Part shown: positions 4,024 through 9,808 of the stretch, piece by piece
Numbering within the stretch: the first letter of the stretch is position 1
How the letters are laid out: each line of letters starts with the position of its first letter
Virus record (IMG/VR): IMGVR_UViG_2541047873_000006
Reading direction: 5' to 3' (one strand)
Origin: a virus
Taxonomy: Duplodnaviria > Heunggongvirae > Uroviricota > Caudoviricetes
Length of the DNA: 37,458 nucleotides
Translations under genes and position numbers: made by a program
Notes under the pieces: model-generated
Databases searched by the model: none
Told to the model about the DNA's origin: nothing
What the model saw: the letters and a program-made list of their open reading frames with translations, nothing else

Positions 4024-4286
4024 CCATTCTGGACTACATCGCTACTCATCCGGGTTGTAGCGGCGGAGAGATCGCCGCAGCACTGAATACTCCAACCACA
4101 GCCATTAATGCTGAGTTACGCCAACTTTGGCGCGGCGGCTTAGTCATCAGAACAAACCGCAGCACAGGTGGTCGCGCTCGCAAAACTGGAGGCCAGGCTT
4201 CTTACCACGTAAACCCGATGCCGTTCGGGTGTAGCAATCCACTTACTCACATGTTTAACCAGCTACTAAAGGAAGCCAGAACATGA
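4020..4286 (+). CDS. Hypothetical protein, possible winged-helix DNA-binding fold (88 aa)
   Basis: Track ORF; LDYIATHPGCSGGEIAAALNTPTTAINAELRQLWRGGLV resembles a winged-helix recognition unit (impression by eye only). Confidence 0.45.
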   Translation: MTILDYIATHPGCSGGEIAAALNTPTTAINAELRQLWRGGLVIRTNRSTGGRARKTGGQASYHVNPMPFGCSNPLTHMFNQLLKEART

Positions 4287-4582
4287 GCACCATCAACCAC
4301 CAGAAGCTACGCGAACTGGCATTTGCCCTGCAACGAATGGCAACGCCTCAAAAATTACTGGCATTTCGCGCAATGCTCTCGCCGTCTGCTGTGCTGGCAC
4401 TGCTGGATGAGCTGGAGCACGCCAGAACCACGGCTCCTGCCATTCGCCTGACACTCCATCATGAAATCGCTGATTTCTGCGCGACGTTGGAGGCACCAGG
4501 CGAACCGGAAACGCCGGAAGCAATACAGCAAGAGCTGCTGCAACGCATTGACAAGGTTTTTGATTTTTTTCTGAACCAGTAA
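4283..4582 (+). CDS. Hypothetical protein (99 aa)
   Basis: Track ORF; ATGA overlap with the previous ORF. Confidence 0.5.
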   Translation: MSTINHQKLRELAFALQRMATPQKLLAFRAMLSPSAVLALLDELEHARTTAPAIRLTLHHEIADFCATLEAPGEPETPEAIQQELLQRIDKVFDFFLNQ

Positions 4583-4673
4583 GAAACCAGAACATGCACA
4601 CACAAAAAAACCGCTTGCCATGCCGCAATCAGTCAGGTTACATTTCCGCTGCACCTCATAAAACGGGTGCCGG

Positions 4674-4897
4674 GATTCTCAACCCGATACAGAGCAAAGC
4701 GCATAACCGCGCCAGCGGTTTTTTTGTGCGTACTGTATTGCCACGTCTTTTTCGCGTCAGAATTATGGCGGGGCGTACGGGGCCGACTTCGGTCGGGCCG
4801 GATTCTTTGCTCTCCGGTGTTGAGAACCCTGTACGTCTCGCCACCCCGAGATTCTCAACTCTGGATGGTGAGCTATTTCTATCACCGAGCAAAGAGG
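4674..4897 (+). other. Structured, repeat-containing leader/intergenic element (candidate cis-regulatory RNA or small RNA)
   Basis: Motif pair TTCTCAAC...GAGCAAAG at about 4676-4699 and 4853-4893, with its exact inverse CTTTGCTC...GTTGAGAA at about 4805-4826; a cUUCGg tetraloop hairpin at about 4779-4800; the third copy overlaps the AAAGAGG ribosome-binding site of the 70-aa ORF. Confidence 0.35.
4704..4727 (+). terminator. Candidate intrinsic terminator or attenuator inside the early operon
   Basis: AACCGC-GCCA-GCGGTT stem-loop followed by a run of seven T. Confidence 0.4.
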
Positions 4898-4904
4898 CCA
4901 CACC

Positions 4905-5117
4905 ATGGCAAACCGCAAACAACAGCGCGCATACGCTGCGCGTCGTCACATCCAGACTGAAATCAACCGTAGACTTTTCCGCGCATCACGCGTCGCGCAA
5001 ATCATGCACATCAATATGCTGCATGAGCGCAGCCACGCGCTATCGAACATCTATTCCGCCTCTGTTTTCAGCTATCTGGCGGATGATCTGCGCGAGCTGC
5101 AACAACTCTTCCAGTAG
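4905..5117 (+). CDS. Hypothetical basic protein (70 aa)
   Basis: Track ORF with AAAGAGG 8 nt upstream; Arg/Lys-rich N-terminus. Confidence 0.45.
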   Translation: MANRKQQRAYAARRHIQTEINRRLFRASRVAQIMHINMLHERSHALSNIYSASVFSYLADDLRELQQLFQ

Positions 5118-5207: not shown

Positions 5208-5597
5208 ATGATTGACGCTCATGACTTCACAAGATGGGTGCGCACACAGGACACCCGTCTGGCTCCCGTTCTTCAGGGATTATTTGATCTCTACATCCGT
5301 GGTCGTGACAACAGAGCACGCACCACAAAACCAGAGAATGCAGACACCCTTTATTTCACAGTAGACGACTGCTACCGCGTGGACTTCACACCACACGGGC
5401 TGGCGTTGCACTGCCTGACACCACACGGAGAATCACTGCTGGCGTATTACGACTCCCCGGCCTCCGTATTTGCGGCAATGCTGGCGCATCGCACTGCTGG
5501 CGGGTGTGCCTCGCTGAGTGAATACACCGCTGAATTTAACCGCCTTTCTGCCCTCTTCTCGCAGGAGTGGCAGCGCGTGACGGGATACCAGCCATGA
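5208..5597 (+). CDS. Hypothetical protein (129 aa) immediately upstream of A
   Basis: Track ORF; its TGA stop overlaps the ATG of gene A (ATGA). Confidence 0.55.
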   Translation: MIDAHDFTRWVRTQDTRLAPVLQGLFDLYIRGRDNRARTTKPENADTLYFTVDDCYRVDFTPHGLALHCLTPHGESLLAYYDSPASVFAAMLAHRTAGGCASLSEYTAEFNRLSALFSQEWQRVTGYQP

Positions 5598-8434
5598 GTG
5601 AGTTTGCATGGAGCTGGAATGAACCACGGCCAGCCATTGATCCGGCCAGATTTACGGAGCACAGGCAGGAAACTGAAACCGACCTGCAACGCGCCATCCG
5701 TTACTACCTTGAGGCGGACAAAAAGGCCCGGGAAGAACAGGAAGCGAAGGAGGAAGCCTTTTTCGCACAATCCGCCATGGGTAAAAAACTCATGGCATCC
5801 CTTGAGGAAGCCGGACAGCGTGAAAAGCTGGCACAGAGCATCATCAGTAAGCGCCGGGCAACAGAACAAGACCCGGTGGCCCGTGCCTTTGCCACACTGA
5901 AGGCGCTTCCCGTTTATCTGCGAGAACCTCTGAGCCGCCACCTCTCTTTCCTGCGCAAGAAGCAGGAAGCCGATCGTCAGAAAGGCAAAAAGAGCTGGCA
6001 GGCGGAACGCTATGCACGCGGAACCCTGCGCAAAATATTCGAACGTCTGGACCGCACCGACAGCCGCTGGCTGACACCGGGTTATCGCTCCCTTGCCGGA
6101 CGCGAACGCCTGGACGATTTGCTTTACCTGCCGCAGCTCAACAAACACCAGATACAGACGCTGGCCACCATGACGGCGGCGATGTTCAGCAGCACCTTCG
6201 AAAAACTCTGCGATGGCTTTGGCGCGACTGATGGCGAACTGACCATGGATGTAACGCTGAAGGCGTATCAGATGCTGGCCCGCATGGCGTTACACCTGCA
6301 CGCCATGCCTCCACATTATGACGCACTGACAACAGACAAAGACCGGAGGAACGAACCGGACACGGAGCTGCTGCCGGGCGCAATCCTTCGCCTGACCTGT
6401 GCGGAATGGTGGAAACGCAAACTGTGGCTGTTACGTTGCGAGTGGAGAGAAGAACAACTCCGCGCCGCCTGTCTGGTTTCCAGAAAAACATCACCCTATC
6501 TGAGCCAGGACGCGTTAAGCGAGTTTCGCGCACAGCGCGAGAAAACACGCGATTTCCTGAAAAGTTTTATGCTGGAAAACGAAGACGGGTTCACGATTGA
6601 TCTCGAAACAGTGTATTACGCGGGAGTAAGTAACCCGGTTCACCGTAAGGCAGAAATGATGGCCACCATGAAGGGGCTGGAACTTCTGGCCGAAGCCCGT
6701 GGCGACAAAGCGGTGTTTCTGACTGTCACCTGCCCGTCAAAATACCACGCCACAACAGAGAACGGTCATCCGAATCCCAAATGGAACGGGGCCACCATGC
6801 GCGACTCCAGCGATTACCTGGTTAACACGTTTTTTGCGGCGGTCCGCAAGAAACTGAACCGCGACGGCCTGCGCTGGTATGGCATCCGCACGGTGGAGCC
6901 TCACCATGACGGCACCGTGCACTGGCATATGATGGTCTTTGCTCATCCGGAAGAAATCGACACCATTGTGTCCCACACCCGCGATATTGCCATTCAGGAA
7001 GATCGTCACGAGCTGGGTGATGATATTACCCCACGCTTTAAGGCGGAGTACGTCGACGGCTCAAAAGGTACGCCAACCAGCTACATCGCCACCTACATCG
7101 GAAAGAACCTGGACAGCCGCGCCGTGGATGGCATCGACCCGAAAACGGGCAAGCCACGCGTTGACCACGAAACCGGAAAATCAATGGCCGAGAGCGTGGA
7201 ACGCGCCATCGGCTGGGCGCGCCTTCACCGTGTCCGCCAGTTCCAGTTCTTTGGTATCCCCTCCCGTCAGGTGTGGCGTGAACTCCGCCGCCTTGCCAGC
7301 CAGATGGCACGCAACCCGGAAGGCCCGCAACGGCTGAAGGATGACGCAATGGATGCGGTACTCGCTGCCGCTGATGCCGGATGTTTTGCCACCTACATAG
7401 AGAAACAGGGCGGCGTACTTGTTCCACGCAAAGACTACCTGATTCGCACCGCCTACGACCTCGCAGATGAGCTGAACGATTACGGCGAACAGAGTGTACA
7501 GATTTACGGGATCTGGTCGCCGCTCATCGGGGAATCCTCCCGTGTGTGCACGCATCCGGATAACTGGAAGCTGGTAAGACGTAAACCGGAAGTGGAAGAC
7601 AGCGCCCGCGAAAATGGTTTTGACCTTCAGGGCGGCCCTGCCGCCCCTTGGACTCGTGGCAATAACTGTCCCCGTGTACAGGAAACGGACAACAACGGGA
7701 CAGAACAGCCGGAAGAACGGCCAGCACCGTGGCCGCAGCTTCCTGACGGCATTGAAGTGAACGAATGGATGCGCTCACTGAAACGGCACGAACGCCGGGC
7801 GCTGATGCGTTCGCTTCGTGACAAACAGGCAAAAAACAGCAGTGATGAAATGCAGAGCTGGACACAGAGCCGCAAACAGCAGCGGCCTTTGCCTGATAAC
7901 CACGAATTACTCGCTAGAGAATGGCGGGAGTCTGCTGAATCTCTCGGCCTGCATATCGGTGAACAACAAATGCAGCACCTGTTACGGGGCGGCAGTCTGT
8001 ACGTTGACGGCAGCATCATTGCACCGCAGGGATTTGAAATTGTACGCAAACCGGATACCCGCCCGGACAGCCGAATCACGCAGCTCTGGCAACGCCTGAG
8101 CCGTAATCACGGCGTAAGCAGCACGGAGATCCGCCATAACCCGGTCGCCAGCTATCTGGAACAGCTGGGGGCATCAGACCCTGAAGCCGCCGCACGCCTG
8201 GCATCCACACTTCAGCAGGACCAGAACACCATGAAAACACCCGTTACCGTGCTTTCTGACATGCTGCGCGCCATCCGCGACGCAGAGCACGCACAGAGAA
8301 TCAGTGAAACCACTGAACGCGCCCGCCGCAAAGCAGACCTGCTGCGGGGTGGCCTGACCAGTGGAAACAAAAAACAGACAGAAACGGGATTCACAAATCC
8401 CGTAAATGAGCAAAAAACGCGCCGCGATATATGA
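5594..8434 (+). CDS. A: Rolling-circle replication initiator / replication endonuclease (P2 gpA-like), about 946 aa
   Basis: Track ORF 5567..8434 (GTG); ATG 5594 preferred because of the ATGA coupling. HUH motif in EPHHDGTVHWHMMVF and catalytic tyrosine motif in YIATYIGKN; the first 760 aa are collinear with the recalled P2 A protein. Confidence 0.9.
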   Translation: MSEFAWSWNEPRPAIDPARFTEHRQETETDLQRAIRYYLEADKKAREEQEAKEEAFFAQSAMGKKLMASLEEAGQREKLAQSIISKRRATEQDPVARAFATLKALPVYLREPLSRHLSFLRKKQEADRQKGKKSWQAERYARGTLRKIFERLDRTDSRWLTPGYRSLAGRERLDDLLYLPQLNKHQIQTLATMTAAMFSSTFEKLCDGFGATDGELTMDVTLKAYQMLARMALHLHAMPPHYDALTTDKDRRNEPDTELLPGAILRLTCAEWWKRKLWLLRCEWREEQLRAACLVSRKTSPYLSQDALSEFRAQREKTRDFLKSFMLENEDGFTIDLETVYYAGVSNPVHRKAEMMATMKGLELLAEARGDKAVFLTVTCPSKYHATTENGHPNPKWNGATMRDSSDYLVNTFFAAVRKKLNRDGLRWYGIRTVEPHHDGTVHWHMMVFAHPEEIDTIVSHTRDIAIQEDRHELGDDITPRFKAEYVDGSKGTPTSYIATYIGKNLDSRAVDGIDPKTGKPRVDHETGKSMAESVERAIGWARLHRVRQFQFFGIPSRQVWRELRRLASQMARNPEGPQRLKDDAMDAVLAAADAGCFATYIEKQGGVLVPRKDYLIRTAYDLADELNDYGEQSVQIYGIWSPLIGESSRVCTHPDNWKLVRRKPEVEDSARENGFDLQGGPAAPWTRGNNCPRVQETDNNGTEQPEERPAPWPQLPDGIEVNEWMRSLKRHERRALMRSLRDKQAKNSSDEMQSWTQSRKQQRPLPDNHELLAREWRESAESLGLHIGEQQMQHLLRGGSLYVDGSIIAPQGFEIVRKPDTRPDSRITQLWQRLSRNHGVSSTEIRHNPVASYLEQLGASDPEAAARLASTLQQDQNTMKTPVTVLSDMLRAIRDAEHAQRISETTERARRKADLLRGGLTSGNKKQTETGFTNPVNEQKTRRDI

Positions 8435-8510: not shown

Positions 8511-9470
8511 ATGAAAATTTGTATCGACGACGGCTCCACCAACATCAAGCTGGCATGGACTGAGAACGGCGAACGCCGCAACGCCATCAGCCCGAACAGC
8601 TTCAAGTCGGAATGGTCTGCGCCGTTCGGTGGCACGCAGCCCGCGAACTACATGCTTGATGGCGTGCGCTATGGTTTTGATCCGGTCAGCGATCGCTTTG
8701 TCCAGACGACCGACACGCAATACCAGTACAGCGATGTGAATGTCATTGCCATTCATCACGCGCTGGTCAAATCAGGCATCACGCCACAGGAGGTGGATGT
8801 GGTTGTCACCCTGCCACTGAGCGAGTATTTCGACACAAACGCACAGCCGGACATGGCCAACATCAACCGCAAAAAAGCGAACGTTATGCGCCCGGTGGAG
8901 TACCAGAACGGCGAAGCATTCACTATCCGTAACGTGCGGGTTATGCCTGAATCCATTCCGGCTGGCTTTAAGGCACTGGCTGACATGAGTCCGTTTGAAT
9001 CCCTGCTGATTGTGGATTTAGGCGGAACCACGCTGGATGTGGCAAAGGTTCAGGGGCAACTGGCAGGTATCAGCCAGGTGTTTTGCGATCCACACGTAGG
9101 CGTTTCCCTGATGGCCGATGCCGTGCTGTCGGTGATGGCCGCTAACGGTATGCGTACCAGTCACCACATCGCCAATACCATTATCGAACATCGCCATGAT
9201 GAAGCCTGGTTGCGCCAACACATCCACAATGACGCGCATTACGCCAGCCTGATGGCGGTTATTCGTGAAAAGGAAGAAACACTGAAACAACGCGTGATCC
9301 GCGCGCTGGCGGGTTTTTCGGGTTACGGACGGGTGATGGTTGTCGGTGGCGGGGCGGAGATTGTGGCACCCGCTATCCGCGAAGCCTGCGGAGTTAATGC
9401 GACTTTCATCGCGGACGGGGTGCCACAGTTTGCTCTGGTTAATGGGCTGTACGCAATGGACAAGGAGTAA
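8511..9470 (+). CDS. parM: Actin-like segregation ATPase ParM/StbA family, 319 aa
   Basis: MKICIDDGSTNIKLAW...ISPNSFK...YQYSDVNV...MPESIPAG...LIVDLGGTTLDV...VMVVGGGAE is collinear with the recalled plasmid R1 ParM (MLVFIDDGSTNIKLQW...); AAGGA Shine-Dalgarno. Confidence 0.9.
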   Translation: MKICIDDGSTNIKLAWTENGERRNAISPNSFKSEWSAPFGGTQPANYMLDGVRYGFDPVSDRFVQTTDTQYQYSDVNVIAIHHALVKSGITPQEVDVVVTLPLSEYFDTNAQPDMANINRKKANVMRPVEYQNGEAFTIRNVRVMPESIPAGFKALADMSPFESLLIVDLGGTTLDVAKVQGQLAGISQVFCDPHVGVSLMADAVLSVMAANGMRTSHHIANTIIEHRHDEAWLRQHIHNDAHYASLMAVIREKEETLKQRVIRALAGFSGYGRVMVVGGGAEIVAPAIREACGVNATFIADGVPQFALVNGLYAMDKE

Positions 9471-9474
9471 ACCA

Positions 9475-9789
9475 ATGACGACACCAACCAGACGGATAAG
9501 TTTCTATCTGAAGCCCGCCGCCGTCAATAGTGAACGGAAGGCGTGTAATTACCTCGACAGCCTGCCAGCCTCTGAACGCAGCCGCGCGCAACGCGCGGCC
9601 TTTCTGGCCGGGCTGGCACTCATAAAACGCGATCCTGCATTTGCCTATTGGTTGGCCGAATGGCCGGAAGAAGGAGCTGCGCCAGCAAAGAATAATATTC
9701 AGAGTAAATATGCCAGCACACCTGCCACCGGAAGCAATCACAGCACTAGCGAGATAAGAAAGAACATTCAGTCATTTTTCCCGGAGTGA
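9475..9789 (+). CDS. parR: ParR/StbB-like ribbon-helix-helix centromere-binding adaptor, 104 aa
   Basis: ATG 9475 with CAAGGAG 7 nt upstream, in frame with track ORF 9340..9789; ISFYLKPAAVNSERKACNYLDSLPASERSRAQRAAFLAGLAL matches the recalled R1 ParR N-terminus (IAFKLNPDVNQTDKIVCDTLDSIPQGERSRLNRAALTAGLAL). Confidence 0.8.
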   Translation: MTTPTRRISFYLKPAAVNSERKACNYLDSLPASERSRAQRAAFLAGLALIKRDPAFAYWLAEWPEEGAAPAKNNIQSKYASTPATGSNHSTSEIRKNIQSFFPE

Positions 9790-9808
9790 AAACAGGAGAG
9801 GTGCATCT

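Follow-up and report, generated by a model that had tools for sequence, protein, structure and literature searches.

What is the role of a stretch of about 310 bp, rich in repeats and hairpins, that precedes a small open reading frame (ORF) of 70 amino acids (aa) in the early region of a P2-like prophage? The stretch (positions 4594-4904) is part of IMG/VR record IMGVR_UViG_2541047873_000006, 37,458 nucleotides (nt) of DNA, the whole of which is called the window here and provides all coordinates. As a whole, the window represents a P2-like prophage, assigned to the P88 group (Xuanwuvirus, Peduoviridae) and integrated beside pdxB in Escherichia coli. A first-pass annotation, made from the letters of the window, had seen in the stretch three copies of a bipartite motif, the middle one inverted, along with a terminator-like hairpin and a hairpin capped by a cUUCGg tetraloop, and had interpreted the region as a riboregulator, an attenuator or a small RNA.

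The region forms a complete IsrK–C4 (immI/P4-immunity type) cassette, lodged in the early operon of the P2/P88-like prophage. The name IsrK-C4 immunity system is already in use for P4, P1, P7, N15 and some lambdoid prophages, IsrK being equivalent to seqA and C4 to CI (PMC3632133, PMC4825925). The cassette is very probably functional, as a c4/CI-type immunity module controlling an epsilon-like gene, the individual steps of its action being held with less confidence. The evidence consists of the family membership and structure of two RNAs, a three-way complementarity that covaries in relatives, the overlap of a pairing site with a Shine-Dalgarno sequence, a terminator, promoter-like hexamers, an ORF running through the whole region, and the homology of the 70-aa product to P4 epsilon. 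The proposal of a small RNA thus holds, the middle motif copy corresponding to boxes b' and a' of a C4-family antisense RNA known to Rfam; as a new riboregulator it does not, the c4/CI immunity module being already known from P1, P7, P4 and Gifsy-1.

Two RNAs and the start of an epsilon-like gene

An Rfam search, suggested in the first-pass annotation, was run on the whole window and returned exactly two matches over the curated thresholds, both in this region (Table 1). C4 (RF01695) scored 78.5 bits (threshold 45, E = 6.5e-14) and matched over positions 1-87 of the 87 in the model; isrK (RF01394) scored 62.8 bits (threshold 50), again at full length (model positions 1-77). At a permissive E-value sub-threshold noise only was added (CRISPR-DR33, STnc410, c4-a1b1). 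A tRNA-like element and a novel riboswitch, also considered, were dropped, as both Rfam models exceed threshold.

The minimum-energy fold of the c4 segment is the Rfam consensus structure (-47.6 kcal/mol, z = -4.9), and no shuffled sequence equals it. By analogy to the annotated P1 c4, the mature RNA would span about 4767 to about 4846. The isrK segment folds less extremely (z = -2.5), and features the two 5' hairpins and the intrinsic terminator of the RF01394 family. An AUG at the 5' edge of c4 (4765-4767; 'AuGG' in the Rfam consensus) is in frame with the long ORF described below; the corresponding AUG in N15 gp32 and in Stx phage F004 is the first ATG of the same-phase ORF through c4, and the annotated mature P1 c4 starts at the G of that AUG.

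The repeats, hairpins and ribosome-binding site overlap noticed earlier were all recovered, each within 1 nt of the place first given. On the plus strand, two copies of TTCTCAAC (4676-4683, 4852-4859) flank its complement (4819-4826), and two copies of GAGCAAAG (4692-4699, 4887-4894) flank the complement of GAGCAAAG (4805-4812); the motif is present in three copies, of the same order and orientation as described, the middle one inverse. Each 8-mer is expected by chance about 1.3-1.6 times across the 37-kb window, and the lone copies found elsewhere (34233, 6937, 23524) correspond to this expectation. Three of the four TTCTCAAC matches and three of the five GAGCAAAG matches are packed inside a 220-nt stretch, with matching order and orientation. 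The terminator-like hairpin and its T7 run were retrieved by a terminator scan, and the cUUCGg hairpin is part of the c4 fold. The third copy lies, as had been noted, over the ribosome-binding site: its second box, b2, overlaps the Shine-Dalgarno sequence AAAGAGG, which ends 7 nt before the ATG at 4905.

A promoter-like site precedes the isrK segment. It matches the consensus at 9 of 12 positions, both hexamers being invariant in the 41 homologues analyzed below, and is by its location the positional equivalent of P1 P51b (P1c4) and P4 PLE, a candidate promoter for both RNAs.

The 70-aa ORF matches Pfam PF25738 (Derepression) with 31.6 bits against a threshold of 27, and is 30% identical to P4 epsilon across 66 aa (BLASTP, E = 3e-9); in some genomes RefSeq labels it 'derepression protein'. 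A kinship to P1 Icd was considered and discarded, no similarity being found. The cargo is not that of P1 and P7, icd and ant: an epsilon homologue stands in its place, and no Ant follows.

Table 1. Features of the cassette and of the flanking genes, in order along the window
Feature	Position	Strand	Basis or remark
MarR-type gene	4020-4286		gene order
Ead/Ea22-like gene	4283-4582	+	gene order; directly 5' of the cassette region
eta/Ash-like ORF, 205 codons	4594..5211	+	ORF list; crosses isrK, c4, a2/b2 and the epsilon-like ORF
Long-range inverted repeat	4598..4731	+	arms 4598-4618 and 4711-4731, 19/21 complementary
Promoter-like site	4615..4644	+	TTGCCA, 18-nt spacer, TACATT; promoter scan
IsrK/seqA-like RNA	4651..4725	+	Rfam isrK RF01394
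IsrK hairpin 1	4651-4670	+	fold
IsrK hairpin 2	4671-4686	+	box a1 (4676-4683) mostly in its loop
Box b1	4691-4699	+	single-stranded, 5 nt before the terminator
Intrinsic terminator ('t1' equivalent)	stem 4705-4720, T7 run 4719-4725	+	terminator scan
C4/CI-type antisense RNA	4761..4848	+	Rfam C4 RF01695
c4 closing helix	4766-4782 with 4827-4843	+	fold
c4 UUCG hairpin	4783-4796	+	fold
c4 hairpin 2	4797-4818	+	box b' (4804-4813) in its large loop
c4 box a'	4819-4826	+	in the junction, before the 3' strand of the closing helix
Downstream target (seqC equivalent)	4852..4897	+	a2, spacer hairpin, b2 and Shine-Dalgarno sequence
Box a2	4852-4859	+	third repeat copy
Spacer hairpin between a2 and b2	4867-4886	+	
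Box b2	4887-4895	+	overlaps the Shine-Dalgarno sequence AAAGAGG (4891-4897)
70-aa ORF	4905..5117	+	homologue of P4 epsilon (derepression, anti-repressor); ribosome-binding site under b2
orf129	5208-5597	+	same transcription unit, 3' of the 70-aa ORF
gpA replication endonuclease	about 5594-8434	+	same transcription unit; followed by ParM

In the window, the minus strand encodes an integrase and a C-like repressor; cox and a series of small early genes are located on the plus strand. The segment 4283-5600 is 100% identical in strain EcPF14, and 90-94% identical in phages P88 and PhiR44_2. The annotated end of orf129 and the start of gpA share 4 nt. An NCBIfam search of the 70-aa ORF, orf129 and gpA gave no match. 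With gpA, portal and other phage genes, the host element is of the P2/P88 type; it is not a P4-like satellite, the hallmarks of which would be an alpha primase, sid/delta/psu and the absence of structural genes. Directly after the gpA replication gene come ParM and a plasmid partition/stability gene (about 8511-9800), segregation functions of the plasmid type in a P2-like prophage integrated beside pdxB.

Complementarity and coding across relatives

The folding and covariance analysis that the first-pass annotation had recommended was carried out on relatives of the prophage. Eighty IMG/VR loci encoding the 70-aa protein provided 42 distinct 327-nt regions, 83-100% identical; 41 of them were aligned, and one (L018) was left out, as it carries a 17-nt duplication. 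Promoter hexamers, IsrK hairpins, terminator, c4 helices and Shine-Dalgarno sequence are nearly invariant in the alignment. Variation is concentrated in the a and b boxes of all three copies, which change together, and the pairings are retained through compensatory changes. Pairs between a1/b1 and a'/b' are formed in 96.4% of cells, with changes on both sides in 10 of 17 pairs (183 cells); when the partner is shifted by 1-3 columns as a control, 28-57% of cells pair. Pairs between a'/b' and a2/b2 are formed in 95.1% of cells, with double-sided changes in 9 of 17. Pairing of this extent far exceeds chance, and the earlier suggestion that the middle copy can pair with either flank is borne out, as both sets covary. 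The three c4 helices are paired in 100% of cases, three pairs having changed on both sides, and the six pairs of the terminator stem do not vary at all across the 41 sequences. The RNA corresponds to the plus strand, because the numerous G-U pairs of the c4 helices would be A-C mismatches on the other strand.

Six types of a' box and 11 types of b' box were distinguished, reassorted into 14 combinations. Cognate and non-cognate partners differ widely in predicted duplex energy, both for a2/b2 (-22.6 vs. -9.9 kcal/mol) and for a1/b1 (-21.0 vs. -8.6 kcal/mol). The pattern has the features of a specificity code under diversifying selection, like that of the heteroimmune P1 and P7. The variable a and b boxes most likely set specificity, near-identical prophages falling by their box sequences into many mutually orthogonal RNA-immunity groups. 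Two same-genome pairs were present among the loci fetched; the members of one differ in type, the other is probably a split assembly.

In the locus left out of the alignment (L018:69-412, IMGVR_UViG_2582580934_000004), the 17-nt tandem duplication, ATTCTTTGCTCTCCGGT, involves the loop and the 3' stem of c4 hairpin 2. The c4 of this locus thus combines a b' box of the window type with a second, different b' box of the L060 type, and may be a recombination intermediate or an RNA of dual specificity.

The first-pass annotation had described the region as lacking a convincing ORF. This part of the description is doubtful, as a 205-codon ORF spans the region and is open in 39 of the 41 distinct homologues. 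The start of the ORF lies 21 nt ahead of the -35 hexamer and follows the stop codon of the preceding gene by 11 nt, and the stop of the ORF overlaps the start of orf129 as ATGA; the epsilon-like ORF sits in another frame. In about 62 of 67 distinct loci the conserved ATG is followed by a stop at the same position, and the ATGA overlap is found in 61 of those. The frame is kept despite several indels, the sum of which is a multiple of three. Stop trinucleotides occur, as distinct occurrences, 28 times in the other two frames and three times in the 205-codon frame, these three being confined to two sequences (L052 and L058). From this conservation, and from a codon phase shared with P4 eta (Pfam Ash), the cassette region is probably translated as well, in the 205-codon frame.

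Residues 12-105 of the 205-aa product match phrog_995 (7e-16) and phrog_6928, the P4 eta family (4.6e-14); the PHROG families matched hold P4 eta and lambdoid anti-repressors. Over isrK (phase 0) as well as over c4 (phase 2) the ORF shares the codon phase of P4 eta/ORF199, and the same phase was found in N15 gp32, in the anti-repressor ORF of Stx phage F004, and in the Ash-Rha ORFs of an Stx phage and of ST64B. In a direct BLASTP comparison the match to P4 eta is marginal (E = 0.02-0.04). The proposed kinship to eta is accordingly drawn from profile matches and shared codon phase; peptide homology is weak, and the architecture is that of eta. In GenBank record PV468777.1 the equivalent stretch is marked 'similar to ash family protein'.

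Conservation of the start, of the open frame and of the ATGA stop, together with the matches to PHROG and to the Pfam Ash family, could be taken to mean that the Ash/eta-like protein is the functional product, and the repeats its by-products. This is very unlikely. Amino-acid constraint does not explain reverse-complement repeats with compensatory changes that include G-U pairs, the variable boxes freely alter the encoded peptide, and two Rfam models are above threshold in the same DNA. In P4, moreover, it is the act of translating eta that matters, and not a known activity of the protein (PMC10111431). The Pfam Ash family is in effect the translation of this RNA cassette.

A working model and the known immunity systems

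Several elements of the model, namely the firing of the promoter in the lysogen, the processing of c4, the override by the 205-codon ORF and the action in trans, are carried over from P1, P4 and Gifsy-1. The promoter inside the eta/Ash-like ORF would fire even in the lysogen, and most transcripts would end at the terminator (4705-4725), giving a 75-nt IsrK/seqA-like RNA. Read-through transcripts would be the precursor of a stable c4 of about 80 nt, released by RNase P, as in P1 and P4, and by 3' trimming. Acting in trans, c4 would pair through b' (in the loop) and a' (in the junction) with b2 and a2. Translation of the epsilon-like ORF would be blocked because b2 covers its Shine-Dalgarno sequence, and the untranslated RNA would then probably be terminated ahead of orf129 and the replication gene A. 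The same c4 boxes could pair with a1/b1, just 5' of the terminator, and feed back on c4 synthesis; in P4, pairing of CI at this site raises termination, the RNA thereby regulating itself. Hartmann et al. (1995), Forti et al. and Briani et al. (2000) reportedly dealt with RNase P processing of c4/CI and with CI-stimulated termination at P4 t1, and Briani et al. (2000) are said to have assigned P4 seqA to termination and autoregulation.

When the early promoter is on, ribosomes in the 205-codon frame would enter from upstream, melt the terminator, c4 and the target sites, and pass to orf129 and then to A via overlapping stop and start codons. Lytic transcripts would be made insensitive to c4 in this way, as shown for P4 eta. 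The whole arrangement, judged by these analogies, most likely serves to silence an anti-repressor-like gene while the phage is dormant.

The long-range inverted repeat may add a further layer. Its 3' arm coincides with the descending half of the terminator and the T-run, and in the predicted fold of RNA 4594-4735 (-50.3 kcal/mol, z = -4.4) the long-range helix replaces the terminator hairpin. RNA started at the internal promoter is without the 5' arm, and the repeat may be a promoter-dependent antiterminator. No counterpart of the 5' arm was found in P1 and P4, where it was sought.

A close parallel is P4. Its CI region scores with C4 (74.9 bits) and its seqA/t1 region with isrK (60.8 bits), in the same order as here, with an intrinsic terminator between the upstream target and the RNA gene; the P4 promoter, like the candidate promoter here, lies within a long ORF (eta/ORF199 in P4) that reads through the cassette in the same codon phase, and epsilon is downstream, followed by a replication gene (epsilon, orf151 and alpha in P4). 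In P4 a constitutive promoter is located inside eta, full-length Eta is made from an upstream promoter only, and eta translation overrides CI-dependent termination (PMC10111431). The differences are of various kinds. The cassette described here resides in a full P2/P88-like phage with its own C/Cox switch and gpA, whereas P4 is a satellite; the spacer from isrK to c4 is 35 nt long, vs. 107 nt in P4; the downstream target is placed directly on the epsilon-like ribosome-binding site; orf129 is unrelated to P4 orf151, no homology between the two being found; and no homologue of kil was found here, unlike in P4, where the eta and kil ORFs are nested.

In the GenBank record of P1, promoter P1c4 (former P51b), a1, b1, c4 RNA, a2, b2 and icd are annotated in this order. 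The distance from the end of the -10 hexamer to a1 is 32 nt in both phages, a terminator follows b1, c4 is followed by a2 within a few nt, and a hairpin separates a2 from b2. In both, b2 lies over the Shine-Dalgarno sequence of the first small ORF, of about 70 aa, and its end is 9-10 nt from the start codon; in sequence, too, leader and c4 5' end are nearly identical (GAATTATGGYGGGGCGT). Differences between boxes define the heteroimmune types of P1 and P7, as proposed here. In contrast to P1 and P7, the controlled ORF is not an Icd homologue and no Ant follows it. P1 differs further in that a stop codon inside its c4, in the Ash phase, leaves no through-ORF, and in that a second, C1-controlled promoter is located upstream.

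The Ash-Rha ORFs of lambdoid and Stx phages and of N15 similarly have isrK and C4 embedded in phase in a long ORF; examples are the 'antirepressor' of Stx2a_WGPS2, ST64B Sb41 ('similar to P4 ORF199') and N15 gp32. Their through-ORF continues into an anti-repressor domain of the Rha type, whereas in the P2-like cassette it ends at orf129, and the epsilon homologue is separate and out of frame.

The isrK-orf45-anrP region of Salmonella Gifsy-1 (with STnc1160) encodes a short RNA of the same isrK Rfam family, and in its read-through transcript a CI/c4-like RNA is joined by a small ORF, which is translated and coupled to an anti-repressor. Hershko-Shalev et al. (2016) regarded IsrK as structurally homologous to P4 seqA and noted a CI-like RNA downstream of it (PMC4825925). 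The setting differs, being lambdoid, with AnrP, leading to AntQ, as the cargo; the documented effect differs as well, being activation by IsrK in trans through helices other than the a and b boxes. The evidence for an isrK RNA as an Hfq-binding activator of the read-through mRNA in trans comes from the Gifsy-1 experiments only. The same could occur in the P2-like prophage: the 4651-4725 RNA, carrying a1/b1, would act in trans on the read-through transcript, or as a decoy for c4, free a2/b2, switch on epsilon-like translation and drive induction, activation by IsrK being the main output. The isrK model is above threshold, IsrK in trans raises translation of the downstream ORFs of Gifsy-1 >100-fold and is needed for induction, and competition is plausible since a1/b1 and a2/b2 would bind a'/b' about equally well (-21.0 and -22.6 kcal/mol). 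On the other hand, P4 seqA serves CI-dependent termination and autoregulation, not activation (PMC10111431), and the Gifsy-1 scheme relies on other helices, formed by IsrK with the 3' end of orf45. Activation of this type is possible though somewhat unlikely as the main output, and would rather come on top of repression by c4 than replace it.

Several points weigh against an immunity cassette of the P4/P1 type that represses the epsilon-like gene. The short IsrK RNA of Gifsy-1 activates rather than represses (PMC4825925). The Rfam model c4-a1b1 (RF03163) reaches 15.9 bits, vs. a threshold of 46.7, at 4638-4690; P4 itself scores 44.1 bits with this model, just under threshold, and the stretch matched is captured by the isrK model. 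The Pfam Phage_ASH model gives the 205-aa ORF 19.3 bits, below its threshold of 26 (P4 eta scores 82 bits, the Stx2a_WGPS2 anti-repressor 55, ST64B Sb41 43). In this prophage, the promoter is assumed by homology to be active, c4 to be processed and to act in trans, and orf129 and A to be subject to polarity. The controlled gene is neither icd/ant, as in P1, nor kil, as in P4, and the biological outcome could differ. Finally, in the minimum-energy fold of the full-length cis transcript (4651-4925), a'/b' and a2/b2 of the same molecule are paired with each other.

The last point, by which the Shine-Dalgarno sequence is sequestered in cis, would suit a pure leader or attenuator, an idea already put forward in the first-pass annotation: the middle repeat would never be released, and the RNA would toggle between a fold that hides the ribosome-binding site (a'/b' with a2/b2) and one that frees it (with a1/b1). 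Such a switch is unlikely. The c4 segment has its own very stable closing helix, backed by covariation. P1 c4 and P4 CI act in trans, and the closing helix is what RNase P recognizes in both. The many orthogonal box types fit selection on immunity in trans, but would not be needed in cis. Repression by a released c4 remains the preferred reading.

Distribution, helper and satellite

The cassette (window 4640-4904) was found in 1172 of 5426 complete E. coli genomes (22%), in up to four copies per genome. In a sensitive blastn search it was detected in 140 phage records, mostly of Stx phages, but also of N15, ST64B and mEp460; it usually resides within or beside anti-repressor genes, and one record, LC710661.1, explicitly annotates both non-coding RNAs. 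In the inspected records that carry the cassette whole, RefSeq has no feature beneath it; among the eight matches listed, two partial ones overlap an annotated coding sequence. In phage P88 (NC_026014; L002:5033-5221), a hypothetical minus-strand gene, SF19_gp13, is annotated by RefSeq atop the c4/isrK RNAs, and is probably a spurious call.

The missing RefSeq annotation, and the lack of an experimental record for P88-like phages, might suit a decaying remnant, carried along in P2-like prophages and devoid of present function. This is extremely unlikely, as the three box sets stay complementary through at least 14 type switches, and scaffold, terminator, promoter hexamers and through-ORF are intact in the 22% of complete genomes mentioned. 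The intact cassette and the retained complementarity imply ongoing selection.

Cassettes of this kind are well known, and Rfam detects both RNAs with its default thresholds. What appears to be undescribed is its setting in the early operon of P2/P88-like phages, where it guards an epsilon homologue; no description of the cassette in P88 or other P2-like phages was retrieved in a literature search, which does not prove its absence from the literature.

The helper-type phage carries both the kind of immunity RNA used by the satellite and a homologue of the protein by which the satellite derepresses its helper. P4-like satellites (80 loci, L086-L165) show the same combinatorial box variation, with 13 types. 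Their a-box polarity is opposite: a' of the P4-like CI RNA is AUUCUCA, AUUCCUA or AUUUCCA, the same sense as a1/a2 of the P2-like cassette, and is thus inverted with respect to P1, to the Rfam consensus and to the window, the b box not being inverted. Two of the three satellite a' types (UUCUCA, UUUCCA) are the exact sense of helper a1/a2 boxes, and in the one genome of the sample with both elements (L109 and L068) the a' boxes are complementary. From such matches one may imagine an RNA-level arms race or dialogue between P2-like helpers and P4-like satellites, in which the helper c4 could pair with the satellite CI RNA or mimic its target, one element titrating or triggering the other. The idea is speculative and quite unlikely: the a box only fits, and no complementarity of the b boxes was seen by inspection of the box types.

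The cassette explains a 310-bp stretch in a prophage family carried by roughly a fifth of complete E. coli genomes. The known principle is unchanged, and the value of the finding is in annotation and comparison rather than in a new concept. To our knowledge, the C/Cox protein switch only is described in the classical P2 literature; the cassette predicts a second, RNA-based immunity layer in P2/P88-like phages, which would place an epsilon-type anti-repressor under antisense control in a phage of the helper type. The family also constitutes a natural library of at least 14 RNA/target pairs, predicted to be orthogonal and built on a constant scaffold, which may be usable as orthogonal translational repressors.

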